A DNA stretch of 64,000 nucleotides from a virus. The stretch lies in IMG/VR virus record IMGVR_UViG_3300036800_000031, positions 1 through 64,000 of that record. One strand, 5' to 3'. Positions 38,623 through 64,000 of this stretch are shown here, in pieces. Numbering within the stretch: the first letter of the stretch is position 1; each line of letters starts with the position of its first letter. Below the pieces are notes generated by a model. It was given only the letters and a program-made list of their open reading frames with translations. It was not told the origin of the DNA and did no database searches. The position numbers and the translations under genes are program-made.

Positions 38623-39861
38623 TCAGACCGTGGTGACGTTGCAGAACAGGTCGGGACGGAAGATCATCAGTCCGACCCGCTCTTCGCAGACCATGAGGAT
38701 CTGGTTCAGCTCGGCGTACCGCTCCTTGTAGGTCTCCACGTTGACCTGCTCGCGGTCGGCGATCATGCCGCCCAGCTGGAAGTCGCCGACCAGCGAGGTG
38801 TTCAGCGCCATCGCACGGGTCCGGTAGGTCGGAACACCCCAAACCGTCAGCGGAAGGTCGCTGAAGGGGGTTCCGGCGTCGAACGTGCCCGAGCCGCCCG
38901 CTGCCCGCTTGGTGAACATGTTCCAAGCGTTGGTCGGGTTGAGGACAACCGCCGTCGGGGTGCCGTCGTGGTTCTCCACCTGAGCGAACGCAGCCCCGAA
39001 GGTCTGAGCGTTGTCGGTGTTGACCGCACCCTGCGTCAGCACGCCGTTGGCTCCCAGGACGCCCTGGAGGTCAGGCCAGGTGCCCGAACCGTTCAGGAAC
39101 TCCCAGTCCTCCTTGAAACGGACCAGGTACGGCAGCCGCTGGTTGATGTATTGGATCACGGCCTGGGCGTCCTCGAACAGCTGCTTCGAGATCACCAACG
39201 TGGCGGCGATGACGGTCGGGTCGGCCTTGGCAGCCTGGAAGCTCAGCGTGGCGTTGGGCTTCACTCCACCCTCGGGGACGGCGGATGCCGACTCGTAGTT
39301 GGTGGGGTTGAGTTCCTGGACGTAGGGAATCTGCGCCAGGGTGGTCGTCATCTTCGGGAACAGGTCCCGGAGGAACAACCGTGCCTGCCTCGGCACCGGG
39401 GCGATGGGCTGACCGACCGGGAGCAGGTAGCCCGCTCCAGAGGGGTCAACGCCGGGGGGGCCGGACGAACCAAAGTCCTGCACCGCACGGGTGAGCATCT
39501 GGTCCAGCGTGCCCTTGCCTTCGTAGGCTTCCTCGAAGGGGGCGTTGCGGGTGCCCGAGAGCGCCCACTTCACCATGTCCTCGGAGATGAACATTTCCCC
39601 GAGCGACCGGCGCTCGATGTCATCTTCGGTGCTGCGTGCCCCGCCACCAGCCGTTGCGGCCAGCTTTGCGTTGGCCCGGCGCTCCTCCAACTCGCCCAGC
39701 GTGATCTGAGCGTCAAGCTCATTCACCTTGGCGAACATGGACTGGAGGCGAGCGGAATCCTCATCGGAGCGCACGCCTTCGGGCAGGTCGGCGAACTCAC
39801 GACGGAGGTTTGCGCACTCCTCGTAAAGCTCGTCCAGGTTCAGGGTTGCTGCTTCAGCCAT
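38623..39861 (-). CDS. HK97-fold major capsid protein
   Basis: coiled-coil delta domain, VPEGGVKP, FLNGSG, GDF and EERVGLMIFRP motifs. Confidence 0.95.
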   Translation of the reverse strand: MAEAATLNLDELYEECANLRREFADLPEGVRSDEDSARLQSMFAKVNELDAQITLGELEERRANAKLAATAGGGARSTEDDIERRSLGEMFISEDMVKWALSGTRNAPFEEAYEGKGTLDQMLTRAVQDFGSSGPPGVDPSGAGYLLPVGQPIAPVPRQARLFLRDLFPKMTTTLAQIPYVQELNPTNYESASAVPEGGVKPNATLSFQAAKADPTVIAATLVISKQLFEDAQAVIQYINQRLPYLVRFKEDWEFLNGSGTWPDLQGVLGANGVLTQGAVNTDNAQTFGAAFAQVENHDGTPTAVVLNPTNAWNMFTKRAAGGSGTFDAGTPFSDLPLTVWGVPTYRTRAMALNTSLVGDFQLGGMIADREQVNVETYKERYAELNQILMVCEERVGLMIFRPDLFCNVTTV

Positions 39862-46300: not shown

Positions 46301-46371
46301 CATGGGCGTCAGGAATCGAACCTGATCGGCGAGAGTTTTGGAGACTCTCCGGCTACCTCAGCCTCGCCCAT
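46301..46371 (-). tRNA. tRNA-Trp(CCA), replacement copy overlapping the HNH gene
   Basis: ATGGGCG/CGCCCAT-G acceptor, loop CTCCAAA. Confidence 0.8.
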
Positions 46372-46955: not shown

Positions 46956-46983
46956 ATAGTACCCCGATTTCGAGGGGGGTCAA
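46956..46983 (-). promoter_or_regulatory. sigma70/SigA-like promoter for the tRNA array
   Basis: TTGACC-N16-TACTAT. Confidence 0.55.
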
Positions 46984-48247: not shown

Positions 48248-48426
48248 CGTCCGGCGATCTTCTCGGTGAGCTTGTTGCCCGGCTCACAGTCGCGCCCGTC
48301 GTAGTAGTGGGTCATCCCATCGCCAGGCTGGCAGGCGGAGTCGCCCTTCTGCGGACCGTCCAGTTGGTCTGGAACGAACTGCTCGGTTATGCCGCATTGG
48401 CACTTTCTCGGTTTGGCATACCTCAC
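48244..48426 (-). CDS. small hypothetical protein
   Basis: coupled ORF. Confidence 0.45.
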   Translation of the reverse strand: MRYAKPRKCQCGITEQFVPDQLDGPQKGDSACQPGDGMTHYYDGRDCEPGNKLTEKIAGR

Positions 48427-48800
48427 TTACCCAGTTCCTTCCACGCCTCCAGCGCACCGTCAGCGGCTCGGTCAATCCACTCGTCGTAGTTGACGATTTC
48501 ACATTCCGGGTTGGTGCAATGAGCCAGGTGCTCCGAGGTGATGAAGCACAACGGGCATCGGTCACTCCCGTCTTCGTTCTGGAACATCACCGACATCCCG
48601 ACCGGGCTTTTCATCACGTTTCCGATGATCGCCCAGTGAGCCGACATCAGCGGATCGAAGTTGTCGACGTTAGAGCCGTCTTGGGCCTCCGAGACTAGGT
48701 TCTTCACCGCTTGTTCCCCTCCCTCTGCTACCAGAGAGGAAAGTCCACGAGCGTCAATCGCCGCCCGCAATGCTGACCAGTGGTCGGTGCAGAACTTCAT
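48423..48800 (-). CDS. hypothetical protein
   Basis: MKFCTDHW..LRAAI..RGL...FDPLM...CPLC; coupled to neighbours. Confidence 0.65.
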   Translation of the reverse strand: MKFCTDHWSALRAAIDARGLSSLVAEGGEQAVKNLVSEAQDGSNVDNFDPLMSAHWAIIGNVMKSPVGMSVMFQNEDGSDRCPLCFITSEHLAHCTNPECEIVNYDEWIDRAADGALEAWKELGK

Positions 48801-49684: not shown

Positions 49685-50286
49685 GGTTGGACTCCGACGA
49701 TGACCTGGAAGCCGTAACCGTCCGGGTCACTGAGGGCGTGGTGGATCACCTGGAATCCGCCTTGTTCGATCAGCGCCCGGTAGCCGTCCAAATCCCAGGC
49801 CCAAGCGTGGCAGGCGTCGTGGCTCTCGTAAGTCTCAAAGGCCGGGCTGCTGGCGACGATGAACCGGGAGTGGCGACTGATCCGGCGCACGGCGGCGTGC
49901 GGGTCGGGCAGGTGCTCCAGGCACTCGGTGATAATGGTGAGCACGCCCCACTGAATCTCCTCGTGCTCGAAGTCCCGGTGGTGGACGGTGACCCCCCTCG
50001 TATTTTGAGCGTAAGCCACGTTGGCCGGGCTGAGGTCGTAACCCCACCTTTCGACATCCAAGCCGCTTAGAAGGGACAGCAGGCCCCCGTCACCGGCCCC
50101 TAGATCACTAATGGTGGTGATGTCGGGGTAGTGGGCTACCAGGGAGTGAACTTCGACCGCGACGTCCTTCAAGCGGGTGACGTGCGCCCCTTGCTCCAGA
50201 TGAGGAGCGTGCTCACGGGTGTCATACCAAGAGGGGATGAAGAAGTCCGGCGGGTCGGCCGGGTCGTACAGCTGGTGCTCGGTCAT
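49681..50286 (-). CDS. class I SAM-dependent methyltransferase
   Basis: DLGAGDG, GYDLS and ECLEHLPDP motifs. Confidence 0.85.
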   Translation of the reverse strand: MTEHQLYDPADPPDFFIPSWYDTREHAPHLEQGAHVTRLKDVAVEVHSLVAHYPDITTISDLGAGDGGLLSLLSGLDVERWGYDLSPANVAYAQNTRGVTVHHRDFEHEEIQWGVLTIITECLEHLPDPHAAVRRISRHSRFIVASSPAFETYESHDACHAWAWDLDGYRALIEQGGFQVIHHALSDPDGYGFQVIVGVQP

Positions 50287-50516
50287 GGTCCTGCGATCAG
50301 ATCGGCGGAGACCATGAGTTCGTTCCCGCTCATGGGGTCGATCCGGTACTTCCAGGTGCCGTTGTCGGCGACGATGGTAATGACCCCGTTGACGACGCTG
50401 ACCCCGCTCAGGGCGTCGTGGCTCATCAGCCCGATCAACTCCCGGCTGAAAAGCTCCCGCGGCCCGGCGTCGTGGACGAGGGTGGCCCCGGTGGGGTCCC
50501 GCTCAATGGTGATCAC
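50283..50516 (-). CDS. small hypothetical protein
   Basis: GTGA-coupled ORF. Confidence 0.5.
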   Translation of the reverse strand: MITIERDPTGATLVHDAGPRELFSRELIGLMSHDALSGVSVVNGVITIVADNGTWKYRIDPMSGNELMVSADLIAGP

Positions 50517-51205
50517 GACAGTTCTCGCAGCTTCTGGACGTCGAGCACCATCTGGCCGAGTTGGTACCGGTTCCAGGCTTCCAGGTCGTGGCTGTACATC
50601 TCGGGGCTGTTGACTTCTTCGTAGCGAGAATCCCAATCGCTCTTGCCGTTGGCGTGGGGGTGGAGGTGTTCGATCACCACTTCGGGGAGGTAGCGGAGCC
50701 GTTGGGTTTGCTCTCCCCAGGACTTCCAGGCGTTGTCGAGGTAGAGGTGAGTCTGCTCCGGCGGGCACATATAGCCGAGGGTCTGGATGATCCGGCTGTC
50801 CATGAACACTGCCGTCGGCAGGTTGATCCCTTGGAAAAGGTCGTTCCCGTAGACGATGCCCGGTCCCTGAATCGACTCCAGCGCATCGCAGATCAGCCGG
50901 TCCCAACCTTCGGTACGGGGAAGGTGGTCATCCCCCATGAAACCGACGTAGGGGAAGCCGCTGGCCCAAACCAGGGCCTCTCGGTTGAGAGTAGGGCCGA
51001 GCCGGATGCGGGGGCCACAGCTGAGACCGACGAACCCGCCGCTCCCCATAATGGCGTCGATGTCATCCTCCAGGAAGGAGTCGTCGTCGTTGTCGAGAAC
51101 GATCTCCAAACTGGCGGTGGCTCCGGTGGTTCCCCAAGAATCGCAAAGTCTCTTGACGTTCTCCGGGCGTCCACGGGAGGGGACGATGACGCAGAGGTCG
51201 TTCAC
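50513..51205 (-). CDS. GT-A fold glycosyltransferase
   Basis: VIVPSRGRP...FMGDDH...HLYLD...IEHLHP. Confidence 0.8.
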   Translation of the reverse strand: MNDLCVIVPSRGRPENVKRLCDSWGTTGATASLEIVLDNDDDSFLEDDIDAIMGSGGFVGLSCGPRIRLGPTLNREALVWASGFPYVGFMGDDHLPRTEGWDRLICDALESIQGPGIVYGNDLFQGINLPTAVFMDSRIIQTLGYMCPPEQTHLYLDNAWKSWGEQTQRLRYLPEVVIEHLHPHANGKSDWDSRYEEVNSPEMYSHDLEAWNRYQLGQMVLDVQKLRELS

Positions 51206-51453
51206 TGGTCCCTCACGATGCGGGGGTCGCCGTCGGGTTTGAAGATTTCCGGCCCTTGTTCCCCCACGATGTAGAGCTTGTCCTTCACTACTCCGCCAGT
51301 AGCAAGCTCACTGAACCCTTGGAACTCCAAAGCGGTCTTGTGCGCCGGGCAGAGCCAGACCGGCACCGTGAAGGTCCGACTCACCACCACGGTTCCACCT
51401 TCCCCACATCCGTCCACGGCGCAGGGGTTGAGGGGGTTATCTTCGTCCATCAC
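51202..51453 (-). CDS. small zinc-finger protein carrying a tape-measure-type motif
   Basis: CAVDGC...CPAH plus ATGGVV...YIVGEQGPEIFKP. Confidence 0.55.
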   Translation of the reverse strand: MMDEDNPLNPCAVDGCGEGGTVVVSRTFTVPVWLCPAHKTALEFQGFSELATGGVVKDKLYIVGEQGPEIFKPDGDPRIVRDQ

Positions 51454-51478
51454 GGCTCTCTGTCTAGTTGATATGCGG

Positions 51479-51556
51479 TAGCGGGGGTGGGATTCGAACC
51501 CACGACCTCCGACCCGAAAGTGAGTCGGCGAGCTAACCGGGCTGCTCTACCCCGCG
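51479..51556 (-). tRNA. initiator-tRNA-like RNA with an aberrant anticodon arm
   Basis: CGCGGGG-TAGAGCAGCCCGGTTAGCTCG fMet-type body, C1xU72; CCGAC-TCACTTTCGG-GTCGG arm. Confidence 0.65.
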
Positions 51557-52635
51557 CTGGAAGCCATTACGTGGAGCGAAGTTTGACGCCGGGTACCGGT
51601 CCACGCCTCCCACCATTCGTCGGCGTGGCGCTCGTAGGTCAACCCGGCCATGACTTCTCGACCGCGCCCGGCCACGTCCGCCCGGAAGTCAGGATTCAGG
51701 GCCAGCGCCCGGAGCCACTTCTTCCACCGTTGAGGGTTGGACGCTTCCAGACCGACCCCGAGGGCATGGAGCCGGTGGTTGTCCCAAGTGGGCGAGGCAA
51801 CGACCGGAACCCCGACAGCGGCCATCTCCCCCATTTTCAGGGCGCTCTTGGCAGCGTTGAAGGCGGTAGCCGCAAGGGGAACGACCCCGACTTCCATCTT
51901 CGCCAGTTCGGCCGGGTACTGGTCAAAAGGCACCCACCCCCGGCTCGTAGAAGGCTCCTCAGCCAGCCCCAGGGCCTCCCTAACGCCTTCGCCGGTCCCC
52001 ACGGTATGGAAGCCCCACCCGGTAGCTCGCATGACGTCAGCGACCGTCCCGCCGGTTACTTGCAAATCGACCGGGTGGGTAGCGACGCTTCCAGCCCAAC
52101 CGAATGTCTCCGGCCGGTCCCCGGTCACCTGGAGGTAGCTCTCGGGGACGTAGTTAGGCAGGAGTACCCCGTGACCGAACCCGTAGCGTTTGAGGAGGGC
52201 GGGGGTTGTGCAGGTCACAACGTCTGAAATCATGCAGGCTTCGTTGATCCAATGGTGGCTACTGAGCGAGTCCCGGCCCGTGGCGTAGGCAGCTTTGGCG
52301 ATGTTCCCGTCGTCAATCTGATCGAAGCGGTCATCCACGTCACAGACCACCTTGATCCCCCGTGCTTGGAGATGAGGGATCAAGTCACTCCACCACCGCC
52401 GACTCGGCCGTTGGACAACCACGACGTCGGCGTTCGGCCTCCGGGCCAACCCCATCACGTTCACCCAGGGAGGAGGTTCTCCCCCGGACCACTTCTGGTC
52501 CCACTGAACGGTCGGGCCTATCCGGTCGATCACGACCTCAGCGCCTTGGGCGGCGAGGATGCGGGCCGGGAGTAGGAGTCGGTATTGGCTGGTGGCGTCG
52601 TTGTCGTCGCCAGCAGGCCAGACAAGAACCCTCAC
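51547..52635 (-). CDS. GT-B fold (GT4-like) glycosyltransferase
   Basis: YRL..P, VVVQRP, DVDD, GWAGS..H..DL and FN.AKSALKMGE..A.GVPVVASP motifs. Confidence 0.85.
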   Translation of the reverse strand: MRVLVWPAGDDNDATSQYRLLLPARILAAQGAEVVIDRIGPTVQWDQKWSGGEPPPWVNVMGLARRPNADVVVVQRPSRRWWSDLIPHLQARGIKVVCDVDDRFDQIDDGNIAKAAYATGRDSLSSHHWINEACMISDVVTCTTPALLKRYGFGHGVLLPNYVPESYLQVTGDRPETFGWAGSVATHPVDLQVTGGTVADVMRATGWGFHTVGTGEGVREALGLAEEPSTSRGWVPFDQYPAELAKMEVGVVPLAATAFNAAKSALKMGEMAAVGVPVVASPTWDNHRLHALGVGLEASNPQRWKKWLRALALNPDFRADVAGRGREVMAGLTYERHADEWWEAWTGTRRQTSLHVMASSAG

Positions 52636-52642: not shown

Positions 52643-52870
52643 TCAGGAAGTCACGATCAGGCACCAGTGACCCGGCAGCCGAAGGCAGACGCCGGTTCGC
52701 CAGGTCAGGTCTTCCCGCTCGACGTTGCACCCGGCCTTCTGGATTCGGCAGGTGATGTCCGGCTTGCGGATCAGGTTCAGGTGTCGGTACATCCACTTGC
52801 GACCGTACTGATTCCACAACTGCCGACACCGCAGCGGCAGGGGAATCTGCGGGTGCTTGCGGAGAGACAT
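52643..52870 (-). CDS. small hypothetical protein
   Basis: TGATG-coupled to the protease gene. Confidence 0.35.
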   Translation of the reverse strand: MSLRKHPQIPLPLRCRQLWNQYGRKWMYRHLNLIRKPDITCRIQKAGCNVEREDLTWRTGVCLRLPGHWCLIVTS

Positions 52871-54588
52871 CAGGCGGCGGGGGACTGGCGACGGTTCAGC
52901 CGGGTGTCCAACTTCGCCAGCGCAGCGTCACGTTCAGCGGCCAGTTCTTCTTCCCGGTTGCCCGCTCCGGCGACTTTGAGCACATTCGGCGGAACCGGCT
53001 TCTTCATCTTGCCGTGGAGGCTCATCAGCTTCTTGGCTGCGGCCGTCTTGGCCTCGTCCGGAGCGTCCACCTGGTTGATCCGGCTGGAAGCGGCGGCGAT
53101 GGCGTGGGTGTTGTAGGTGCCGTCAGGCTCCTTCACCGGAAGGTGGTGGGCGTCCTTGTTGTCGCCTTCACCCTTGATCAGCGCAGCTTCCTTCCACTGC
53201 TCCGGGGTGTAGTCGGCCTGGCTGAAGTCGCTCCAGGGCTTGTCGCTGAAGGTGGTGTCGCCACGGTTGCCGTCTTCGCCTTCATCCGGGTCATCCGGGT
53301 CGTCCACGCCCATTGCGTCGAGCAGGGCATCCACGCTGACCGAAGCCGCCTGAACCAGCGCCAACGACTGCTGGACATCATCCGGCAGGGCCGCAATGTC
53401 CACGTCCCGGAGGTACTCCACCGCCGAGTCGAGGGCGGCGTCGGTAGCGGCGGCGAGGCTGGCGGCGACTGAGTTGTCGTTCCCGCCGGTATCCGTGCCG
53501 GTAGCGACGTGGGGAGCGATGGCGATGGCCGCTTCCCGCAGGATCAGGCCGAGAGCCGGGTGAGCCTGCTCGATCACCGACCGAACGTAGTCGGCGTCGA
53601 TGTCGTCGGGGTCGTCCGGAAGCTCGAACTCAAACGGCTCGCTGCGTTGGCCCTTGCTGTGGACGGCCTTCGCGGCGGCGCTCTTGGCGCTGGCCGGGCT
53701 GTCGCTCTCGGTGGTGCCGTTGCCTACCGGCTCACCTTCGTCGTCGGTGACTGACCAGGAGTGGCCGGTCACGGTGTCGCCGTCCTTCACGGGCTTCACC
53801 CTCATGGCTTCGCCGTTCGGGCCGGTAGCCGTGTGGGTGCCGCTGTCGAGGGCTGTCCACTCCACCGGGGCAGTGTCATCTTCGTCTGCACCTTCGGGAG
53901 CGGCGGCTCCATCGCCTGCGGAAGCGGTACGGACGCCCGGATCGGTGAGCACGATCTTCTCCAGCAACTCGGGGTGATGCTCCTCGACCAAAGCCCGGAA
54001 GCCGTCGAAGGTGACCAGGCCGCTATCGCGAAGCTGGAGAATCTCTGCCATTTCCATGATGATGAGTCCTTGCTCTCGTAGCCCGACCGCCTTAGCGCCA
54101 GGGATCGAACCGATTGTGACTGGGGAGAACTCTGCCATGAAGGCGGAGGTGATGCGTGACACGCCGCGAGTGCCGGTGGGCTGGAACTTGGCATTCTTGA
54201 AGCCGAAGCTGAAGTCGGTGATCGTCCCGTCTTGGATTTGGCTGAAGGCCCGCTTGGCATTCGGGACCGCATCCGGGTCGCTGAACTTGCCCCGGATCTC
54301 GTTCACCTTCGGGGTCACCTGGGCGGTGAGTGCCCGGCCGATGGGGTCGCGGAGGTCGTGCTGCCAGCACATGGTGGGGAGCCGCTGCTCAAAGCTCTCG
54401 GCGAAGGCCCGGTCCCCGAACATCGTCTTGTAGGAGTCCACGGTGTCGTGGGGGAACTCGACCAAGACCTGGTGGGTCTTGTCGTCTACGTCCTTGAAGT
54501 GACCCTGGAGCGAGTCGATTGAACGCAGTTCCAGACCGCCGATAACGGGGCCACCGAGGTCTCCAGGGTTTGCTTCGCGTGTGTCCAC
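52870..54588 (-). CDS. HK97-family prohead protease with a long C-terminal extension
   Basis: DSY...AF...WQHD...PIG, FSFGF and EFSPVTIGSIPGA motifs. Confidence 0.9.
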   Translation of the reverse strand: MDTREANPGDLGGPVIGGLELRSIDSLQGHFKDVDDKTHQVLVEFPHDTVDSYKTMFGDRAFAESFEQRLPTMCWQHDLRDPIGRALTAQVTPKVNEIRGKFSDPDAVPNAKRAFSQIQDGTITDFSFGFKNAKFQPTGTRGVSRITSAFMAEFSPVTIGSIPGAKAVGLREQGLIIMEMAEILQLRDSGLVTFDGFRALVEEHHPELLEKIVLTDPGVRTASAGDGAAAPEGADEDDTAPVEWTALDSGTHTATGPNGEAMRVKPVKDGDTVTGHSWSVTDDEGEPVGNGTTESDSPASAKSAAAKAVHSKGQRSEPFEFELPDDPDDIDADYVRSVIEQAHPALGLILREAAIAIAPHVATGTDTGGNDNSVAASLAAATDAALDSAVEYLRDVDIAALPDDVQQSLALVQAASVSVDALLDAMGVDDPDDPDEGEDGNRGDTTFSDKPWSDFSQADYTPEQWKEAALIKGEGDNKDAHHLPVKEPDGTYNTHAIAAASSRINQVDAPDEAKTAAAKKLMSLHGKMKKPVPPNVLKVAGAGNREEELAAERDAALAKLDTRLNRRQSPAA

Positions 54589-54636: not shown

Positions 54637-54855
54637 TTAGAGGACGATGGCTTTGACCGACGGGTACGCAAACGGAGGTCGGTGGGAGTAGAGAACCAAG
54701 CGGAACTTCTCCGTCCAGGTCTCGTTGAGAACTTCGGTCTCGGGGTGCTTCCGGGTCTCGGTGATGGCCGAGAACTCCTCCGGGGTCATCCGCATGGGGA
54801 TGTCTTCGGACTGGGCCTTCCAAGCCGCTTCTGCCAGTTCGTCCAGCGTCCTCAT
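54637..54855 (-). CDS. small hypothetical protein
   Basis: ATGA coupling. Confidence 0.45.
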   Translation of the reverse strand: MRTLDELAEAAWKAQSEDIPMRMTPEEFSAITETRKHPETEVLNETWTEKFRLVLYSHRPPFAYPSVKAIVL

Positions 54856-55058
54856 TGCTGGGGAGGGGAGGTGGAAGGCTTGACGTTCGGCCGGTCCGGA
54901 GCGTCTTCGTCCGGCTGGTGGAGGGCTTCTACGAGGTCAGGGTCTGGATGGAAGTCGTCGTCTGGCCCGAAGATCATCCACGGTGGCTTACCTTGCGCCG
55001 CCCGATCTGGCCTCTTGAACTTTGCCATTGCTTCCTCGTAGTCGGATTTATCGCTCAC
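54852..55058 (-). CDS. small acidic protein after the polyvalent gene
   Basis: GTGA coupling; Asp/Pro-rich. Confidence 0.55.
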   Translation of the reverse strand: MSDKSDYEEAMAKFKRPDRAAQGKPPWMIFGPDDDFHPDPDLVEALHQPDEDAPDRPNVKPSTSPPQQ

Positions 55059-58000
55059 TTGGCAAAAGCCTCCAACTGCTTCAAGTATACGTGGGTGATA
55101 GCGCCGACCTTCTTGACGCTCTCGACTTGGAACTTACCGGCAGAAATCGTTTCCACTTCGCTGTCGTAGTTGACGACTCTCCCGACGTCCAACGACACGG
55201 TTCCAGCCGGAGCGTGAATCCAAAAATCGCGGGGCGGGTTGCTACCGGACCAGGCATTCGGGTCAGTAGACCAAGACGTCAACGGGATGTCAACCTTGTT
55301 GCCGACCGTCGTGAGGGAAGCGATAACCGAAGCGGGCATTCCACTCTTGTACAGCTTCCGCTGGAAGGCTTGCTTGTTCGGTTCTCCCTTTTCAATGTAC
55401 ATCTGAGCGATCTGTTTCGCCGCCTTCGCTGCCTGCCCGTTGCCAGGGTCATGTCCTTGGGCCATCTTGTCGAGCGCAGTGTTCATGGCGGAATGGCTAT
55501 AGCGGTAGTTGGCCTTCCACATCCCCACCGACCCAAGCTCCGAGGAGGTGAAGGACAGCTGAGTGTCGCTCTGGTTGTTCTTGTACGGGTTCCCGCTCTG
55601 TACCGACGTATAGGCACCGTGACCGCTCTTGTCGGCGAGCACCCCTTGGTGGATGATCGACTTAGAGGAGGCATTCGGGTGTTGGTCGGGGTTCTTCTTC
55701 AAGTCAACCGCGGCCTTACCGGCTCCCTGAGCCAGACCGGCAAGGTGAGCCTGGTCGATGATCCCGGATTCGTCACTGGGCTGGCCGAGGGCCGTCGCTT
55801 GGTCGAGATACCCCTGGGCGGCTCCGTTGATCTGTTCCGGCGTCTTCCCTTGGAGATGTGCCGCTATTGCTTGGTCATAACCCTGAGCGATGGCTTGGTT
55901 GTAGCCGACTTCGGAGGCTGTGGTGGCGTGAGCGGGCTTCGTCCCGTGGGGGATCGTGTCGGGGACGGTCTTCGGGGTCTGTGTGTCCTTTACTTCAAAC
56001 GGAGTTTTAGACGTGTAGAAGGAGTTGACCTTCTCGATGAACTCCTTCTCCTGGGCCTTCTTCGCTTCACTCTTGTGGGTCTTCGCCCATTCCTGCTGAC
56101 TTGCCATCGCCCCGGCGAACTTGCCCTTGGCGATTGCAGCTTCTTCGGTCCCAGGCTGGGAATCCTTCTGAGCCTTGTCCAACTTTGCCATTTCGGTGTT
56201 ATCAGGCGGCGCTGTCGTAGATGCAGATGAGTAGGCAGCGTCGTAGGCGTCGTTGTGGTAGCCGGGGTGCTGGTGGAAGGGTTCCCCGTTGCTGGCCGTG
56301 TCCCCGGTGAAGTGGATCGGTTGAGCCTTTGCCTTCAATGAAGAAGGCATCCCGCTGGTGGAGGGGGAATATCCCGGCCCGGCCGCTGCCTTCGCCGCGC
56401 TGGCCTGAGCGGACCCGGTAGAGAACTGGGCGTGCCCCGGCTTGATCTTCGTCACCTTGGTGGTCGAAAGGCCAGGCTTGAAATCACTCTCTCCGGCGTT
56501 CGGGTTCCCGTTCTCCTTGACGTAGAAGTGAGTGCCCATCGAGTTTGTGGCGGTGATGGTGTGGCCGACGTTGCCGATCAGGATTTGGTCCCCGGCCTTC
56601 AAGTTCTTCGCCATCACCTGGCTCTTGGTCGGCCCCTTCGGCTTCGGAGTAGATCGTCCACCGACAACCTTGGAAACCAGTAGGTTCGGATTGGTGCTGA
56701 TGTGTTGGAACGGGCTTCCAATGGTCTTCCCGGTACTGTTCATCTTTTGGAGAGTGAAAGCCCCCGACGGGCTGACCGCCATCACCTTGTACTTAGTACC
56801 GCCCTTGGTCTTCCAGACGTCGCCGGGCTTCAAGTCCTTCTTCGCTACCTCGACGGTGCCCGGTGACAGTGAAACCTGTGGTGATGCCTGTGGCGATGGA
56901 GTGCTGACCGACGCCTTCACCCCGCCCTTCTGGTTGGGACCGCCCAGCGGGCCTCCTGCGGCCTTGTGCTCGGCTGCTGCGGCTTTGATGCCGTGGTTCA
57001 TGCCGGAAGACTGGGCGAAGCCGCTCATCTCCCCGGCCTTCTTCGACTTCTTCCCCTTGTTGTAGTGGCTGAACGCTGCCAACTGCATCTCGTGGACGGT
57101 GGAACCGTTCGCCGCCATCTGCTTGCCGAGGAGGTACCCCTGGTTGAAGCCTTCTTGGTAGTGGGGCTTGTTCTCGGCGGGGATTTCGGGAGGCAGAGAC
57201 TTCGGGAAGGGGACAGCCGGAGCTTCGACCGGCTTCCCACCCGGACCTTCGTTTTTGACGGTGAAGCCTGGCCCGTAGTTGGAAACGGGCGGAGGGTTGC
57301 TGAACGAGTCGCTGACGTGACCCGGCTGGACGGTGGACTTGTAAACCGTCGCGGCCAAGAGATGAGCTTGGATGTCTGCCTGGCGGGAAGCCAGAGTGTT
57401 GAGAACTTCTTCCCGGTGAGCCTTCGGGATTCCGGCGTCCTGCATCTTCTGATCGACGTTTTCCAAGTTGAGGTTCGCCGCTACCTGGAGACTGCCCTTC
57501 ACCTGGAGCGGGTCCGGGTTCGATCCGTAGAGGAACTTCCCCTGGTCACTGGCGAGCAATGACTTGTCCTCTACTACTTCCTTGCCCCAACTGACCTTCA
57601 CTGCGCCCATCGCCCGGAACTTGCCCGCTCCGCCGATGTCGATACGGACGACGTTGCCGTTCGCGTCCTTGAACACGTTGTCATTGGTCAGCCCGGCGAC
57701 GTCGTGATTGGCCGTGAGGACGTCGATCCCGAACCCCTGGACGCCCTTTACCTTCTCCGTCGGGAGTCCCTGGAGGGGAGTCAGTCCTTCGATTTTCTTG
57801 CTGACCACGGAGAGTGAACCGTCGCCATTCGTCAAAATCGTGGTGTGGGGAACCGTGATCCCGGCGGCTTCGTACACCTTGCCCATCGCCACTTCGTTGT
57901 AGGCGTGCTCGTTCGAGTTCGCGGGCTTCACGAGGTAGCTCGATCCGTCAGCCGCCTTGTACCACTGACCCCCGTTGCTCCCCAGCGGACCGCTGATCTT

Positions 58001-61000
58001 CTGCATAGTGGAGAGGTCGGCGGCGTTCTTCGGGGTGTGATCCATGCCGAGGGAAGCGGCGGTGCTCAGGGGCTTCGGAGCCGGACTGGCTGATGCCTTC
58101 GGAGTGACGACCGTGGTGTCGGCGGTCTCTCCGGCGGCGGTGACGTGTCCCTGGTAGCTGTAGCCGTGGGCCTTCCGGGTGTCCATCACCTTGATGTGGG
58201 CGGCGACAGCGGCGGCGGTGGATGAATATTCCTTGGAAGCGGTAGAGACATGAGCGCCGGGCTTCGTACTCCCGTAGGCCGTGTGGTGGGTGGCGGTGCC
58301 GTCGGGGTGCTGGATGACGGTGGACTCGTAGAACTTGTCGCTCGTGCCGGAGTGGTTCTCGACTCGGGTGGAGGTATAGACCTTGCCGGGTTGGATGGTG
58401 GTCGGGGCGGAGACACTCGGCTCGATGGGCTTCGGACTGACCAGCGGCTGGCTCTTGGCGGTAGCGGCGTATTCCTTCAGCCCGGCGCTGAGTCCTTCCA
58501 AGCGGGCCTTGTCTATCCCGGCGTGAGAGTTGATTGCGGCCTCATCATGCTGGCCCGCTTGGGTGAGGGCTTCTTCCTTGGTCATACCGAGCTTCGTCGC
58601 TGATTCGATGCCGACCTTGTGCCCGGCCGTGAAGGCGTCGTGCTTCGGGGAACCGGGGAGGTACTTGGTAGCGGGACTTTCGGTGTGGAGCTTCTGTTCG
58701 GCGACGTATTTGTCGAACTGATCCTTCAGTTGCTTGTCATAGTCCGCAGCCGATTGGCCCGGTGCCCGAGGGTGGGCGAGGTACGGGTGCTCCTCGTGCC
58801 ACTTCTTCCAATCCCGAGTCTCCAGTTCTTCGTCGTCCCGTCCGGCCAGAGCCGCCTTTGCCGCTTGGTGCTTCTTGTGAGCGATCATCAACTGGGTGGC
58901 TTCGTTGCCGATAGCCGGGACCATGACCGCGATCAGCCCGAGCAGGACCGGCAGAGCCAACCCTCCGGTAGCGGCGGTAAGGGCAATAGCGGCCGCGACT
59001 TCCCCGAGCTTGATGATGAAGCTGGTCTTCGCTTCCTTGTGCTTCTCGTCGGCGATCTTGGTTTCTAGCTCGGTCACCCGGCCGTGGAGATGGGCGGCTT
59101 CGGCATCACTGACGATTTGGGCGGCGTGAGCCTTGTCGATGCTGGTGCTGGCTTCACTGGCGATCTTGTGAACCTGCGCATCGGTGACCTTCGCGGCGTT
59201 CGCCGGGCTGATCTGCGGGGTGCGGGATTGCTTGGCGGCTTCGGTATAGGCGTGAGCCGCGGCCAGGTGGACGGTCTGCGCCTTGCTCTCTCCGATGGAC
59301 TTGGCGACTCCGGCGGCTCGACGGTGCTTGGCGGCTTCGCTGCGGAGGGCGGCTTCGTCTCCGGCCTTCGGACCGTGAGTGGCCTCTTGAAAGTGCTTCA
59401 CGGCGGCGTTGTTGTAGGTGGTGACGCGGGTACCGACGATGCCGTGCTTGGTGGAGAGCTTCTTGAACTCATCGCTGCTCAGCGGGCCGGTGACCTTGCC
59501 GTGCTCGTCCATCCATCCCTGGAAGCCGGACTTCAGCCGGGCGTCGTAGGCCGCTGCGCTTTCACCCTTCGCCCGAGGGTGGGGAACGTAGGGATGCTCC
59601 TCATGCCACTTTTTCCAGTCTCGGGTTTCCAAGTCGCCTATGGATCGGCTACCTCCGTGGAGGTGATCCTGCCAATCGGCGTGGCCCGCCTTGAATGCCT
59701 CGTTGATATCTTCATCCGGTTCGGAGCGGACACCGTAGCTCTGCTGACTGACGTAGGCGTGGGTGGTGCCAGCGCGGTTCTCCACCCGGTCGATGTGGAA
59801 CTTGCCGCCGGAGATAACCTCTCGTTCCTCGGCGTACTGATTGCCCGGCAGGGCGCTGATGTCCAGACCCTTAGCCCCACTGGCGGCGTGGAAAATGACC
59901 GACTCCGTGCGAGCGCCCTTCTGCTTGGTGCCGGTGGCCCCGTGAGCGAACCCGTTAGCCACCGACGCCTTTTTCGACCACGATGCGCTGTCCAAAGCGA
60001 AGGTCTTACCGGGTGTCAGGTGCTGGACCTCGGTGGGCGTCATAAACACGCCTCGGTGCAGTGTCCCCTGCCGAGCGGTCTTGTCTTGGAGCAGCCGGAG
60101 GATGTGCTGGGCCTTGGCCCGCTGGACGTCAAAGTGCTCGACGGGCAAATCTCGAACCTGGCTGCGGTGTAGCTCGTCCTCGAACGGAGTTCGGGCGGCA
60201 GCCTGGTGGTGCCGGAAGGAAGTCGTCCAAGCCGCTATCGCCTGACTGTTTCGATCTTCTTCGGTGGCACCCTCCCATTTGGCTCGGGCGTTCTTCGTCT
60301 GTCGATCATGGGACTCGTTGAACTGGATTCCTGCACTCCCCGATAGGGAGTCCTGGCTTTTCTGATCCAGACGCAGGATCTTGCGGCTTGTCGGCACGAG
60401 GTTTTGCTTGAACCCGGTCCCCGTTCCCGCCTCCGCCGTGGGGTCGGTGGTGTTGACGATCCAGCGCCCCGGCTGTTTGCCGCCGATGCTCTTGAAGGCG
60501 TTGGTCACCCGACGGTGCTGACCGCCGATGAGAATGTGATCGCCCGGCTTCAACCGCCCGACGGTGACCTTCACCCCGGTTGGCCTCGCCGCCAGATGCT
60601 CGGCGAACGCACTCTTGATCCGCTCGTCATACTGCTCGGCGGTTTCGTTCTTCGTCCTCGGGTGAACTTCATACGGGTGTTCTTCGTGCCATTTCTTCCA
60701 GTCTCGGGTTTCGAGGTCTTCGTGGTCATCGGTCTTCCCGCTGTTCTTCCAGAAGGCTTCGTCGGCTGCGGCCGTCTTGCTGCCCTTCTTCGTTAGCCAC
60801 TTCGGCAGTTGGGTTTGCTTCAGCCCCTTCAGCCCCTTCGGCTTGGAGGTGGACGGAGAGAGCTCCAACTTCGGCACCTTGGACTTCGGTGAGCTAGGAG
60901 CCTTCGGCAGGGAATCCCCCGGTCCCTTGTCGCCGGGGCTGAAACTCGTCTTGAAGTAGGGCTTCGGCTTCGGCGGCGGGGGAGGGAGGACGATCTTCGG

Positions 61001-61684
61001 GAAGGAAAGCTCGGGGTGGAGCTTCCCGTAGGCCTCATAGGCAGCTTGAAGGGTCTGGAGGTCGCGATAGCGCCCCTGGAGATTGGTGGACTGGCTGATC
61101 GAGTTGAGGGCCTCTTGCGGCGTGGCCCACTTCAGGGCGTTCGTCTCGCCGTTCGCCTCCATCGCCGTCCGGTCCACCTGACCGGCGGTGTCGGTCGCCA
61201 GATAGAAGTGGTTGGTCGAGGAGGTCGTCCCGCCCCTGAACGCTCCGGGAACGTGCCCGACGATTTGGGGAGCATGACCGGTCTCCTCCAGGGTCTCTCT
61301 AAGGGCAGTGTCAGCTGGGTGTTCACCGTTGTCCGGTCCCCCCTTGGGAAACGTCCAGGCGTACCCGTCGAAGTGGTTGGTTGGCTCCCGAAGTAGCACT
61401 CGTCCAGCAGAGTCAAATGTAATTGCGCCATAGCGGGGGTTGCCTCCCTTGGGCCATTCGCCTTCGGCGTGGAGGTCACGGCTCCCGTAACTCCCGGTGA
61501 GTGGGTTGTGGCTGACCGGCGGTTCCTTCGGATCCTTCGGGGCGGAGTGGCTCTCTTTCGGGGTGTGCCCTTCGAGCATGGCGGCGAACTCAGCGGCGTG
61601 GTGGCTGCCCTGACCTTCGTGTTCGGCGTCCCACTTCGCCCAGTCGCGCTGGCTGAGGTCAGACCGTGAAGGAGCAAGCGCCAT
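55055..61684 (-). CDS. 2209-aa polyvalent protein: NUDIX, ART-like, TM, WGR-like, kinase-like, second ART-like
   Basis: Nudix box GGPDNGEHPADTALRETLEETG; R-S-E motifs LHRG/SASWS/EEREV and LYK/TSWS/SEVET; SDKFYE...YG; GSNGG...YLVK...NEV...NHD...DN...RIDIGG. Confidence 0.8.
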   Translation of the reverse strand: MALAPSRSDLSQRDWAKWDAEHEGQGSHHAAEFAAMLEGHTPKESHSAPKDPKEPPVSHNPLTGSYGSRDLHAEGEWPKGGNPRYGAITFDSAGRVLLREPTNHFDGYAWTFPKGGPDNGEHPADTALRETLEETGHAPQIVGHVPGAFRGGTTSSTNHFYLATDTAGQVDRTAMEANGETNALKWATPQEALNSISQSTNLQGRYRDLQTLQAAYEAYGKLHPELSFPKIVLPPPPPKPKPYFKTSFSPGDKGPGDSLPKAPSSPKSKVPKLELSPSTSKPKGLKGLKQTQLPKWLTKKGSKTAAADEAFWKNSGKTDDHEDLETRDWKKWHEEHPYEVHPRTKNETAEQYDERIKSAFAEHLAARPTGVKVTVGRLKPGDHILIGGQHRRVTNAFKSIGGKQPGRWIVNTTDPTAEAGTGTGFKQNLVPTSRKILRLDQKSQDSLSGSAGIQFNESHDRQTKNARAKWEGATEEDRNSQAIAAWTTSFRHHQAAARTPFEDELHRSQVRDLPVEHFDVQRAKAQHILRLLQDKTARQGTLHRGVFMTPTEVQHLTPGKTFALDSASWSKKASVANGFAHGATGTKQKGARTESVIFHAASGAKGLDISALPGNQYAEEREVISGGKFHIDRVENRAGTTHAYVSQQSYGVRSEPDEDINEAFKAGHADWQDHLHGGSRSIGDLETRDWKKWHEEHPYVPHPRAKGESAAAYDARLKSGFQGWMDEHGKVTGPLSSDEFKKLSTKHGIVGTRVTTYNNAAVKHFQEATHGPKAGDEAALRSEAAKHRRAAGVAKSIGESKAQTVHLAAAHAYTEAAKQSRTPQISPANAAKVTDAQVHKIASEASTSIDKAHAAQIVSDAEAAHLHGRVTELETKIADEKHKEAKTSFIIKLGEVAAAIALTAATGGLALPVLLGLIAVMVPAIGNEATQLMIAHKKHQAAKAALAGRDDEELETRDWKKWHEEHPYLAHPRAPGQSAADYDKQLKDQFDKYVAEQKLHTESPATKYLPGSPKHDAFTAGHKVGIESATKLGMTKEEALTQAGQHDEAAINSHAGIDKARLEGLSAGLKEYAATAKSQPLVSPKPIEPSVSAPTTIQPGKVYTSTRVENHSGTSDKFYESTVIQHPDGTATHHTAYGSTKPGAHVSTASKEYSSTAAAVAAHIKVMDTRKAHGYSYQGHVTAAGETADTTVVTPKASASPAPKPLSTAASLGMDHTPKNAADLSTMQKISGPLGSNGGQWYKAADGSSYLVKPANSNEHAYNEVAMGKVYEAAGITVPHTTILTNGDGSLSVVSKKIEGLTPLQGLPTEKVKGVQGFGIDVLTANHDVAGLTNDNVFKDANGNVVRIDIGGAGKFRAMGAVKVSWGKEVVEDKSLLASDQGKFLYGSNPDPLQVKGSLQVAANLNLENVDQKMQDAGIPKAHREEVLNTLASRQADIQAHLLAATVYKSTVQPGHVSDSFSNPPPVSNYGPGFTVKNEGPGGKPVEAPAVPFPKSLPPEIPAENKPHYQEGFNQGYLLGKQMAANGSTVHEMQLAAFSHYNKGKKSKKAGEMSGFAQSSGMNHGIKAAAAEHKAAGGPLGGPNQKGGVKASVSTPSPQASPQVSLSPGTVEVAKKDLKPGDVWKTKGGTKYKVMAVSPSGAFTLQKMNSTGKTIGSPFQHISTNPNLLVSKVVGGRSTPKPKGPTKSQVMAKNLKAGDQILIGNVGHTITATNSMGTHFYVKENGNPNAGESDFKPGLSTTKVTKIKPGHAQFSTGSAQASAAKAAAGPGYSPSTSGMPSSLKAKAQPIHFTGDTASNGEPFHQHPGYHNDAYDAAYSSASTTAPPDNTEMAKLDKAQKDSQPGTEEAAIAKGKFAGAMASQQEWAKTHKSEAKKAQEKEFIEKVNSFYTSKTPFEVKDTQTPKTVPDTIPHGTKPAHATTASEVGYNQAIAQGYDQAIAAHLQGKTPEQINGAAQGYLDQATALGQPSDESGIIDQAHLAGLAQGAGKAAVDLKKNPDQHPNASSKSIIHQGVLADKSGHGAYTSVQSGNPYKNNQSDTQLSFTSSELGSVGMWKANYRYSHSAMNTALDKMAQGHDPGNGQAAKAAKQIAQMYIEKGEPNKQAFQRKLYKSGMPASVIASLTTVGNKVDIPLTSWSTDPNAWSGSNPPRDFWIHAPAGTVSLDVGRVVNYDSEVETISAGKFQVESVKKVGAITHVYLKQLEAFAK

Positions 61685-61726: not shown

Positions 61727-64000
61727 CTACTTGCCGTGGGCGGCGTCAGCCGTCGCCCCGACCAGCGCCTTGCGGTTCGCGGCTTGCTGAGTCTGGATAG
61801 CGACCAGGGCTTTAAGGGAAGAAGCCGGGATGAGTCCGGACAGGTTCGTGGCGCTGAGCACTCCCTGGCCCATACTCATGTCGGGAGGCAGGAACGCCTG
61901 AGAACAGCGGCAGTTGATTACCTCATCCGGAGGAGCGGCCGGGTCGCCCGGAAATAGCATCGGCCACCCGCCGACGTAGAACGGTCGGCTGACGGGGACG
62001 GTCTGGCCGTCGGCAATTGCGTGGGTCGGGCGAACCCGGTCGTCATGGAGGCTGAGCCAAGCGTGGCTACCGACCGTTCCGTCGGGGAGCTTGGCGGCGT
62101 AGGCCTGGGCGGCTTGGTTCAAGCTGCCTACCGTCTCCGTCCGGGCGATCATTGCGGCCCGTACCGAGTCAGCCGTGTCGAAGATGTCGTTGATGTGCCC
62201 GGCGAGTTCGGTCGCTCCCTCACCCTCCACCACACCCTTCTGGATGGCGGCGTAGATGGCTTGGCGGGTGGTCTCGGTGATACCGGCGGCTTGGCGCTGG
62301 GCACGGACGGCCAGAATCTCGGTGACGTGGTGGAGGCTGTCCCCGTCGTCCAGGCTGACGGGGGCATTTACCTGACTCCTCACCCGGCCTCCGGCGACTT
62401 CCGCCGCCAGGGCGTAGTGCTGAGCGAGCGCCTTCTCCAGGGCGTTCTGCCAGAAGGTGGCGTCGAAAACGGCTCCAGGGTCAACCGCAGCGGCGGTAGC
62501 GCCCGCCAATACGTCAGCGTTGGCCGGATTGACCCCTGTAAGGCCACCTACGGCGCTAACGGAGCCGACCGGGGGAACGGGGCCACCGGCTTGTGCCGCC
62601 CGCTTCAGCATCGTTTTACCGCGCTTGCCGGTCAGGCGGCTGATCACGGCTTGGCGCTGCTTGGCGAAGTGGTCCTTCACCATCGCTTCCATGCCCGGCT
62701 CGATTTTCCGCTGATCGGTGGTGGATTGGCTCTTGGCGGCTTGGAGGTGACGGCGGTAGTTGCCTTTGACGTGCCCGGTGGGGACGTGCTCGTGGCCGAG
62801 CGGCCCGGCGTGGCGCTTTCCGGAGGTGGACCGGTGAACGGCGGCGGTGATCGGCTTTCCACACTGTTCACAGGAGGCCAGGTCGCTCCCGACGAACCGA
62901 TGCGTCTTCAAGACTCCGGCGATGGCGGCGTCTTCCTTTTTGTCCGGGCCGACCGGTAGGAGGGAACCGGCGTTGTCGGGGGTGGACTCGCCGATCATGT
63001 CTCGGAGGCGCAGAGCTTCCGCTTCGATTTGCTCCAAGGGGATGAACAGTTCCTGGTCTTCACGCTTGGTCAGCGTCAACGTGGGGGCACCGAACTGGTC
63101 CTTGCCCCAGGTGAACCCGGCCGGAGGCTTCTTGGCGGCGTATTGGGCACGGGCCGGAGCCGGGAGCTTGTTGATGGCGTTCGCCATTGCCTGGCTGCTC
63201 TTGGTCACCGGCATCTGAGCGGCGGCGCTGGCGGCTACCTGAGCGGCGGTAACCGTCGGAGACGGAGCGGCCGCAGAAGACGTTGAAGCCGCCGGGGCGG
63301 CGGAGGTGGAAGGGGCGGGGGTGGAGGGAGACCCGGAAGAGGATGTTGAGGGTGAGCTAGACGAGGTTGAAGCTGAGGTTGAAGTGGAGGTTGAGGAAGC
63401 CGGAGTGACCAGCGCCAACGACCAGCCCTTCGAACCACCATCGACCCACTGATGCCCGGCCGGGGGAGAAGTCGTTGACATAAGTTGCCGCTGGCTGGCC
63501 GGGAGGGCATTGATCGTGTTCGCCTTGGCTATCGACGCCTTAGACGCCGGAGTGGCCGAAGCTACCGCATGGCTGGCGGTGGCCTTTTGGGCGCTGGACA
63601 TATTTTGAGCGGTCACCTGGGTCAGTGTCGGGGAACCGTCGGCTCCCTTCCCCCAGGTGTATCCGGCGGGGGCGGCTCCGGTCGAGAGGGCCTGGCGCTG
63701 GTCAGCGGGGAGGGCATTGATCTTGATGGCTTTGGCGCTCGATCCGGCCGTGGCGGCGGAACTGGCGGTGAGAGCGGTCTGTGCTGACTTCTTGCTGGCA
63801 GCGGTCGCCTTGTTGGAGGCGGTGGTCTGAGCAGTTTGAGCCTTCTTTGCGGCGGCAGCAGCGGCCTTTTGAGCGGCGGCGGCTTTCGCAGCATTCGCCT
63901 TCACGGCGGCGGCGGCTTTCGCGGCCCCTCCGGCAGCAGCTTTGGCGGCTCCGGCCCCTAGTGCCGCCTGAACCCCGGCCAGTTGGCTCACGGTGAACTT
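61727..64000 (-). CDS. MuF (SPP1 gp7-like) minor head protein, 5' end beyond the window
   Basis: RAAMIARTET...W...DDRVRPTH...DGQ...FPGDP...INCRC; frame open to the right edge. Confidence 0.85.
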   Translation of the reverse strand, partial: KFTVSQLAGVQAALGAGAAKAAAGGAAKAAAAVKANAAKAAAAQKAAAAAAKKAQTAQTTASNKATAASKKSAQTALTASSAATAGSSAKAIKINALPADQRQALSTGAAPAGYTWGKGADGSPTLTQVTAQNMSSAQKATASHAVASATPASKASIAKANTINALPASQRQLMSTTSPPAGHQWVDGGSKGWSLALVTPASSTSTSTSASTSSSSPSTSSSGSPSTPAPSTSAAPAASTSSAAAPSPTVTAAQVAASAAAQMPVTKSSQAMANAINKLPAPARAQYAAKKPPAGFTWGKDQFGAPTLTLTKREDQELFIPLEQIEAEALRLRDMIGESTPDNAGSLLPVGPDKKEDAAIAGVLKTHRFVGSDLASCEQCGKPITAAVHRSTSGKRHAGPLGHEHVPTGHVKGNYRRHLQAAKSQSTTDQRKIEPGMEAMVKDHFAKQRQAVISRLTGKRGKTMLKRAAQAGGPVPPVGSVSAVGGLTGVNPANADVLAGATAAAVDPGAVFDATFWQNALEKALAQHYALAAEVAGGRVRSQVNAPVSLDDGDSLHHVTEILAVRAQRQAAGITETTRQAIYAAIQKGVVEGEGATELAGHINDIFDTADSVRAAMIARTETVGSLNQAAQAYAAKLPDGTVGSHAWLSLHDDRVRPTHAIADGQTVPVSRPFYVGGWPMLFPGDPAAPPDEVINCRCSQAFLPPDMSMGQGVLSATNLSGLIPASSLKALVAIQTQQAANRKALVGATADAAHGK

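Follow-up and report, generated by a model that had tools for sequence, protein, structure and literature searches.

In the IMG/VR virus record IMGVR_UViG_3300036800_000031, a complete 89,253-bp genome with direct terminal repeats of which we analyzed the first 64 kb (positions 1 to 64,000; hereafter, the window), a giant gene beside the head genes encodes a 2,209-residue protein, P0001, in which blocks of unrelated domains are headed by copies of one peptide. This peptide is a previously undescribed module leader of ~45 residues, predicted to fold as a helix-loop-helix and built around the core L-E-T-R-[D/N]-W-x-x-W-x-x-E-H-P-Y. Across a family of related proteins, the leader marks the boundaries of modules that have been shuffled from one protein to another. 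Our best explanation, to which we assign a probability of roughly 0.45, is that P0001 is a polyprotein processed at each leader and that its products share a leader serving a common step. The gene in question is as follows.

55055..61684 (-): giant cargo gene encoding P0001, 2209 residues; open frame with a third-position GC content of 0.78, and homologous giants with the same synteny in relatives

The original prediction, made from the letters of the window, had described a unit repeated three times in this open reading frame (ORF) together with an N-terminal variant, and both are present. The 16-residue core, DLETRDWKKWHEEHPY, occurs in three exact copies besides the variant; the core LETRDWKKWHEEHPY lies at residues 324, 685, and 954 (60671-60718, 59588-59635, and 58781-58828, as had been claimed), and the variant SQRDWAKWDAEH occupies residues 11-22. 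Beyond the core, similarity continues for ~30 more residues (HPR..[GN][EQ][ST]A..YD..[LI]K..F) and then ends. The copies are located as follows.

61613..61663 (-): leader copy 0, the N-terminal variant, residues 8-24, SDLSQRDWAKWDAEHEG; 56 bits against a profile that included this copy
60581..60721 (-): leader copy 1, residues 322-368, heading the ADP-ribosyltransferase (ART) block
59498..59638 (-): leader copy 2, residues 683-729, heading the helical/transmembrane (TM) block
58691..58831 (-): leader copy 3, residues 952-998, heading the long C-terminal block

As sequences, three identical 16-mers cannot be due to chance. Compared over 43 codons, pairs of copies have 11-14 codons identical, 13-14 differing synonymously, and 15-19 differing nonsynonymously (63-66% nucleotide identity), and inside the 16-residue core about half of the codons differ, all of them synonymously. 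Because the peptides are identical and their codons have diverged synonymously, the leader is, by this codon comparison, under purifying selection, and its copies are, on the same grounds, an old duplication kept by selection on the peptide. The synonymous divergence excludes a recent duplication or gene conversion as the origin of the repeat, as well as an RNA or DNA element behind it. Internal translation starts, considered in place of proteolysis, were also rejected: only copy 2 offers a possible TTG (the Leu of DLETR), the corresponding codons of copies 1 and 3 being CTC and CTG.

In the structural model of copy 1, residues 324-335 form a helix, followed by a loop and a second helix at residues 349-366, with predicted local distance difference test scores (pLDDT) of 70-83. 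Within this genome, the cargo gene is the sole match to the leader profile. No Pfam family was found for the leader, and tblastn against 50,697 deposited phage records gave weak matches to the kinase and NUDIX parts of P0001 and none to the leader. An atlas look-up of the leader gave a best score of 0.85, inside the range reached by shuffled sequences; the scaffolding families T4_CASP (0.82) and DUF4355 (0.79), also within that range, serve as leads only. When the leader was modeled in complex with the protease domain and with the capsid protein, the score was 0.00 against a mark of 0.32, in runs without controls. We found no description of the leader motif in the literature, in which the motif string itself was not searched as text.

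A profile search for the repeat, which the original prediction had called for, revealed the family. The profile, built from the four P0001 units, was run against 1.84 billion representative proteins at E ≤ 0.001 and returned 31 matches, 28 of them true; the other three (P0014, P0015, and P0032), unrelated repeat proteins whose similarity is confined to the second half of the profile, were rejected as false positives. A strict motif pattern found 69 copies in 28 proteins (P0001 and 27 hits), and P0011 contains a relaxed copy only. This pattern fixed the His and allowed only Glu, Ala, or Asp at the Glu position, and it did not impose the Arg or the Asp/Asn that precede the first Trp. In the 64 copies outside P0001, Arg nevertheless stands two residues before the first Trp in 60 and Asp or Asn one residue before it in 61, and the commonest residues at positions -5, -4, and -3 are Leu (34/64), Glu (25/64), and Thr (34/64). 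The first copy begins no more than 45 residues from the N-terminus in 19 of the 28 proteins.

The leader is a family-wide marker of module boundaries. All 56 motifs compared fall outside Pfam domains, and in 27 of 29 cases a Pfam domain is the sole one in its between-motif segment. The domains represented among members are NUDIX, Zeta_toxin, ADPrib_exo_Tox, WGR, Ferritin, GNAT, LigT/2H, PARP-like ART, and MuF, with NUDIX present in almost every long member. Moreover, the blocks of P0001 are reordered elsewhere, the NUDIX block lying at residues 60-295 of P0002, 1315-1523 of P0003, and 928-1120 of P0010. In three MuF fusions (P0012, P0016, and the MuF gene of contig L015, which carries its leader at residue 310), an internal leader precedes every module. 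Leader copies resemble each other more within a protein (0.362) than between proteins (0.308), a difference reached by 5 of 2000 permutations; this likeness fits, as far as sequences can tell, a genome-specific partner of any kind, and could reflect tuning of the leader to that partner. Some relatives also carry HExxH stretches, to which Pfam assigned no family.

Other searches for the family were less productive. Word-index searches retrieved only P0002, P0004, P0013, P0016, and P0021, and a search for related loci with the NUDIX block found one locus, L002, which is without the leader motif. A motif scan of cellular genomes gave at least 29 in-frame matches, none of leader character among the matches listed, which therefore point to no prophage or host, and among the matches listed from metagenome contigs the only clear members were L207 and L155, again without a hint of the host. 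A search with a degenerate DNA version of the core brought up true members on five contigs of IMG/VR. Two further IMG/VR contigs, L011 (365 kb) and L016 (189 kb), share an identical 246-residue ORF containing RDWDIWNREHPEE, which is probably a chance match to the pattern.

The genomic setting of the leader family is that of a head module. The cargo gene was expected to lie between the MuF and prohead protease genes, and Pfam identifies both flanks (E = 1.7e-13 and 5.1e-8), with MuF upstream and two small ORFs preceding the S78 protease downstream; the capsid gene follows 13 kb beyond the protease.

61727..64000 (-), extending to 64459 in the full genome: MuF-like minor head protein, 910 residues; Pfam Phage_Mu_F 1.7e-13 and PHROG head morphogenesis families
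54852..55058 (-): small acidic ORF, 68 residues, immediately following the cargo gene and containing a G-x-P-W-[WM] motif
52870..54588 (-): prohead protease S78 (HK97 type), 572 residues with a long C-terminal extension; Pfam Peptidase_S78 5.1e-8, phrog_80 1.6e-13
38623..39861 (-): major capsid protein, HK97 fold with an N-terminal delta-like region; phrog_10 1.3e-41, HK97 gp5 chains 2e-29

The order portal, MuF, cargo, small ORF, S78 protease, and glycosyltransferase is kept in L010, L013, and L015, the portal of L013 being fused to MuF; L005 keeps the cargo, small ORF, and protease part of it, and in L008 the motif genes are preceded upstream by portal and MuF. Pfam supports these gene identities in all five contigs. 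In L005, the cargo consists of three translationally coupled genes, the second and third of which carry the motif at residues 37 and 34; in this relative, modules exist as separate genes that start with the motif.

Most of the domains that had been proposed for P0001 were borne out, namely the NUDIX domain, both ARTs, the kinase, and the TM stretch; the KOW assignments were not, and the WGR assignment stays below threshold in P0001 itself.

61109..61432 (-): NUDIX hydrolase, residues 85-192; Pfam PF00293, 53.6 bits against a cut-off of 21.1, phrog_1198 4.7e-9
59720..60319 (-): ART domain 1, R-S-ExE type, residues ~456-655; pLDDT ~90, Foldseek matches, invariant R, S, and E-x-E
58895..59017 (-): hydrophobic stretch of ~38 residues, residues ~890-930
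58151..58357 (-): WGR-like region, residues ~1110-1178; PF05406, 13.7 bits against a cut-off of 22
57365..58024 (-): HipA/CtkA/PI3-4K-like kinase, residues ~1221-1440; Foldseek matches and conserved columns
55070..55672 (-): ART domain 2, residues ~2005-2205; paralog of domain 1 by sequence relationship

The NUDIX block is supported by Pfam at E = 3.1e-14, and its Nudix box (G-x5-E-x7-R-E-x2-E-E-x-G) is intact as GGPDNGEHPADTALRETLEETGH, with non-aliphatic residues at both U positions. The ART of the second block (block B) is evident from its fold and its invariant residues. The model of this block derives from a thin alignment and has a mean pLDDT of 69; within it, residues 456-655 stand out as a confidently modeled domain, which Foldseek matched to the Vis toxin (1e-7), C3, Tre1, ExoS, and iota, with 66 matches at E ≤ 0.001; the catalytic R, S, and E-x-E are invariant in all six aligned domains, taken from the window and three relatives. 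A profile search of the PDB gave weak matches to the Listeria ART Lmo0066 (0.0027) and Tre1 (0.09). The Pfam family ADPrib_exo_Tox, though matched in the relatives P0003 and P0025, was unmatched in P0001. The C-terminal ART is borne out as a paralog of domain 1. In the third block (block C), the predicted TM character comes down to a single strongly hydrophobic stretch, which holds the only 19-residue windows of P0001 with a Kyte-Doolittle value above 1.6 and is probably a TM hairpin; the block is conserved in P0002, P0005, P0007, and P0012, and no PDB entry matched it by sequence.

In the last block, the region called kinase-like indeed shows a kinase fold: the model of residues 1215-1500 matched CtkA (2.5e-6), HipT (1.2e-5), and PI3/4-kinases in Foldseek, with 334 matches at E ≤ 0.001. 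Pfam HipA_C gave a weak score (0.0025, 17.9 bits against a cut-off of 30.5), and the atlas look-up returned unnamed clusters and one LepB_N cluster. The K, E, D, N, and D columns are invariant, with K39, D107/D114, N122, and D135 found in all four sequences, and we infer that they represent the β3 Lys, the catalytic-loop Asp and Asn, and the metal-binding Asp. The WGR-like region of P0001 is weak (Pfam E = 0.07), and the homologous regions of P0008 (24.3 bits) and P0010 (27.1 bits) pass the Pfam cut-off. For the regions that had been read as KOW-like, there was no Pfam hit, a PDB sequence search gave E = 0.43, and the model has pLDDT below 60; the only recurring element in them is LK[PA]GD, at residues 378, 1618, and 1695.

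By its domains and the position of its gene, P0001 is a phage-type polyvalent cargo protein, made together with the head proteins and carrying enzymes aimed at the host, and it is probably packaged in the head. In the mechanism that we favor, the P0001 polyprotein would enter the procapsid, and the neighboring S78 prohead protease would cut at or next to R|[D/N]W of every leader, yielding a 13-residue N-terminal peptide and four products (residues 14-327, 328-688, 689-957, and 958-2209). All four would carry the same leader at their start, to be used for a common step such as retention in the head or exit through the tail, and the processed products would enter the cell together with the DNA, as a payload comprising a NUDIX hydrolase, two C3-type ARTs, a HipA-like kinase that carries a WGR-like region, and a helical block that inserts into membranes. 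For P0001, we infer packaging, injection, and cleavage, the last with regard to its enzyme as well as its precise bond; as a whole, polyprotein processing is a good hypothesis drawn from sequence comparison, and cleavage by the S78 protease at R|D of the leader is a plausible part of it.

Any explanation has to account for selection in every copy, the position of the copies at module starts, their presence in MuF fusions, the R-[D/N] pair ahead of a Trp-rich helix, and the adjoining prohead protease. A pure packaging signal is insufficient because it leaves the internal copies unexplained, and a pure cleavage site is insufficient because it leaves unexplained both the N-terminal copies and the strong conservation downstream of the bond. 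Processing at a leader that stays on the product is favored because it covers the internal copies as well as the N-terminal copies and the downstream conservation. Further, since the internal copies persist in MuF fusions, where MuF alone should ensure packaging, a function in release can be argued.

Several observations weigh against processing at the leader. Sites for proteases are usually extended, and the proposed scissile bond lies inside the predicted helix at residues 324-335 (pLDDT 70-76). Conservation is far stronger on the C-terminal side of the bond (W, W, E, H, P, and Y) than at P4-P2, a pattern seen more often in elements that fold or bind than in a simple site of cleavage. Two analogies drawn in the original prediction also fall short, although the strings exist. 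The capsid sequence IERR-SLGE, proposed as the delta-domain junction, fails the HK97 alignment on sequence grounds: the HK97 mature N-terminus (SLGSD) aligns to GPPGVD at residue ~135 of the capsid protein, 48 residues downstream of IERR|SLGE, and not to residue 87, and the R|S of that string is retained in three of four related capsid proteins. The protease sequence LELR-S is a weak analogy for processing, being part of an [LM]-x-[LV]-R-[SD] stretch conserved in all five proteases compared, and from its sequence it looks less like a site of processing than like the strand with which the protease fold opens. Nor is the [LI]E.R pattern specific to head proteins, with 15 occurrences in ~25,300 proteome residues, mostly in non-head genes. 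Of the four leader-headed cargo proteins that had been envisaged, the existence of several modules each with a shared leader holds; the last block, with 1,252 residues, has at least four domains and no leader between them. To judge by their sequences, it could instead be the HExxH stretches of some relatives that do the processing, in line with what Iyer et al. propose for polyvalent proteins. Finally, in the available part of the report on phage Burro, a giant virion protein unrelated in sequence runs as a band of ~250 kDa, largely intact (PMC7302621).

A more specific version of processing at the leader, which we put forward tentatively and hold to be doubtful, is that these ~45 residues, as a portable and repeated tag, would suffice for loading any protein downstream of them into an HK97-type procapsid, with R|[D/N]W cut by the prohead protease so that a single polyprotein gives, within the head, a set of injected effectors with a shared new N-terminus. 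Such a tag would be to phages what cargo-loading peptides are to encapsulins and what polyprotein processing is to other viruses, and, if real, it would tell how polyvalent proteins without an internal peptidase come apart.

The strongest competitor, though unlikely in our estimate, is that the leader is a docking element without cleavage, binding the capsid interior, the delta region, MuF, the portal, or the small ORF, or else acting as an exit signal. The giant would then be delivered essentially intact, its copies adding avidity or surviving from ancestral separate genes. The predicted helix-loop-helix, a small unit rather than an open linker, suits docking, as does the concentration of conservation in W-x-x-W-x-x-E-H-P-Y, which resembles a binding surface; the separate L005 genes bear the leader near the N-terminus, and, in the available parts of the respective articles, the giant N4 virion RNA polymerase (PMC5512222) and the ~250-kDa Burro gp27 (PMC7302621) are left uncut or largely so. 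However, one signal should be enough for a fused protein, yet the internal copies are identical under purifying selection and are present even in MuF fusions, and a helix-packing motif would not need the near-invariant Arg and Asp/Asn (60/64 and 61/64) before the first Trp.

An action of the leader after injection is improbable. It could serve as an adaptor to a common host complex or membrane, or as a pro-segment keeping toxic enzymes inactive in the producing cell; that it heads enzymatically unrelated modules would be in keeping with this, as would the two Trp residues on one helix face, which could bind a membrane or a protein, and the modest homogenization of copies within a genome. Against it, the leader also heads non-enzymatic blocks (the TM block, ferritin-like modules, and MuF), and the link to the head module and the N-terminal position in 19 of 28 proteins would be left unexplained. 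We consider it more improbable still that the leader processes itself. Cyclic imide formation is the route of other Asn/Asp autoproteolysis, and the Asp or Asn before the first Trp might be scissile in this way, aided by the Glu-His pair and with no separate protease. That only these two residues occur there in 61 of 64 copies would agree with it, as would the near-invariance of the Glu and His (though the pattern forced the His and allowed only Glu, Ala, or Asp) and the conservation on the side that would form the catalytic unit; however, the leader shows no similarity to a known autoprocessing domain in Pfam, and only subthreshold scores in the atlas, D328 and H336 are two helical turns apart in the model, and the idea is based on the motif alone. 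Lastly, the chance is negligible that the repeats have no function and were left behind by gene fusion or by a recent internal duplication, for although the separate module genes of L005 show that fusion did happen, the notion is already contradicted by peptides that are identical despite 34-37% nucleotide divergence and by conservation of the motif in proteins from many assemblies.

Processing at the leader has partial precedents among known systems. The T4 internal proteins and Alt, an ADP-ribosyltransferase included, bear an N-terminal capsid targeting sequence, are cut by the prohead protease gp21, and are injected. The T4 signal is removed and each protein has its own gene, whereas in P0001 the products would keep the motif, which recurs within one polyprotein; moreover, the protease family (S78) and the motif are unrelated to those of T4.

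The closest described class is that of the phage-type polyvalent proteins of Iyer, Burroughs, Anand, de Souza, and Aravind (2017), which, in the part of the article available, combine 2-15 disparate domains in one polypeptide and are predicted to be delivered with the DNA and processed into units (PMC5512222). P0001 is like them in its multiple domains (NUDIX, two ARTs, kinase fold, WGR-like region, and TM block), in the shuffled conflict domains of its family (ART, kinase, NUDIX-associated, zeta-like, 2H, and GNAT), and in the place of its gene among virion genes, beside MuF and, in relatives, near the portal. Head-packaged ART, Nudix, and 2H domains are likewise described in the accessible portions of two articles (PMC5512222 and PMC9503650), and P0001 is in keeping with the head-packaged enzymes of NAD+ and ADP-ribose treated in the second. 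The hub domains of the class (zincin-like metallopeptidase [MPTase], LPD, and SNF2-methylase) are given there as common and not universal, 36% of the proteins having an MPTase, and the proposed processing enzyme is either this internal MPTase or a C-terminal assemblin-like peptidase (PMC5512222). None of these hub domains was found in P0001 at Pfam E ≤ 0.1 or in its separate blocks at E ≤ 5; ART-PolyVal was seen only in the relative P0021, weakly and below the cut-off (6.3e-4), and the protease proposed for P0001 is, unlike in that class, encoded by a separate neighboring gene. The same portion of the article, the supplementary domain lists being outside its scope, contains no mention of a repeated boundary motif (PMC5512222).

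In MuF polymorphic toxins (Jamet et al. 2017), as described in the part of the report available, toxin domains enter the head via the MuF module (PMC5576092). P0012, P0016, and the L015 MuF gene resemble these as true MuF fusions with leader-headed modules. In the window, by contrast, MuF has an upstream gene of its own, several modules make up the cargo in place of a single C-terminal toxin, and the virus has 35 tRNA genes. Giant virion proteins, possibly processed and encoded beside the portal, are also described for Microbacterium cluster EK and as Burro gp27 in the accessible text of PMC7302621; those phages are podoviruses, and no repeated motif is reported there. By tblastn of the 50,697 phage records, neither P0001 nor its leader has any sequence relation to these giants. 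In the available part of a 2026 preprint on phi24B, a 2,811-residue polyvalent protein is present in virions and is proposed as an ejection protein. Giant proteins of this sort do get packaged, since both the phi24B protein and Burro gp27 occur in virions; a boundary motif is reported for neither in those portions of the two sources.

The window has a GC content of ~62%, with nearly all genes on the minus strand. Megablast of the cargo gene found no close relative among the 50,697 deposited phage genomes, and all matches of the capsid protein to cultured phages are below 30% identity. Because most of the 615 records matched by the capsid protein are actinophages (Arthrobacter 140, Microbacterium 94, Mycobacterium 78, and Gordonia 55), the host is, on this sequence evidence, likely an actinobacterium. 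The leader occurs throughout a family of cargo proteins from the head modules of an uncultured phage lineage, which probably infects actinobacteria. In the parts of the virus genome that were looked at, we saw no sign of a temperate lifestyle.

Polyvalent and MuF-linked cargo is widespread, and how it is sorted to the head and separated into units is still a matter of conjecture. The leader family offers a sharply defined, strongly selected peptide at module boundaries and at the starts of stand-alone cargo genes, and this peptide may reveal how proteins injected along with phage DNA are sorted or separated by cutting; if the leader is sufficient for loading, it would offer a means of getting proteins of choice packaged in phage heads. 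The list of modules (NUDIX, ARTs, zeta-toxin-like kinase, HipA-like kinase, 2H, and GNAT) suggests an early attack on host NAD+/ADP-ribose and nucleotide signaling.

Several features of the surrounding genes were observed along the way. The interval between the protease and capsid genes contains glycosyltransferases, an epimerase, a methyltransferase, several HNH endonucleases, and 34 of the 35 tRNA genes of the window. The 35 tRNA genes cover nearly all amino acids (40059-46371 and 51477-51556, minus strand), and 34 of them are clustered within 6.3 kb of the head module, with HNH endonuclease genes scattered in between. Directly after the protease (46980-52635, minus strand) lie three glycosyltransferases, a nucleotide-sugar epimerase, and a methyltransferase, and the first glycosyltransferase keeps its position after the protease in L010, L013, and L015; the cluster may serve virion glycosylation. 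Protease C-terminal extensions contain DnaJ-type CXXCXGXG zinc-finger inserts in L005 (8748-10634), L010 (2459-4315), and L015 (1059-2966), and the proteases of the window and of L013 are without them.

The 68-residue acidic ORF of the window matched no PHROG family. A small acidic ORF (55-68 residues) also separates the cargo gene from the protease in L010 (4367-4534), L013 (2364-2546), and L015 (3403-3594), with the G-x-P-W-[WM] motif common to all four, and it could be a partner of the leader. In the N-terminal half of the MuF protein (61727-64000), three copies of a ~40-residue unit, N-x-L-P-x3-R-x6-8-P-P-A-G-x-x-W-x(n)-L, were seen by eye, as was the same unit in the MuF fusions P0012 and P0016.

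Two further elements recur within the cargo proteins themselves. Helical segments of the form A-x-x-[EQ]-G-x-A-A-G-[YF]-x-x-H-A, for which a Pfam search gave no family, lie between domains at residues ~1500-2000 of P0001 (~55685-57187) and in P0009, P0024, and P0031. A linker, [P/A]-S-[V/T]-S-[A/K]-P, is found at residues 277, 1089, and 1591 of P0001 (~60834-60854, 58398-58418, and 56892-56912) and in homologs, often just ahead of a domain in the long leaderless C-terminal blocks. With 10 occurrences in the family, against 0.27 expected from shuffles and a shuffle maximum of 2, this linker could be another processing site or a glycosylation site.

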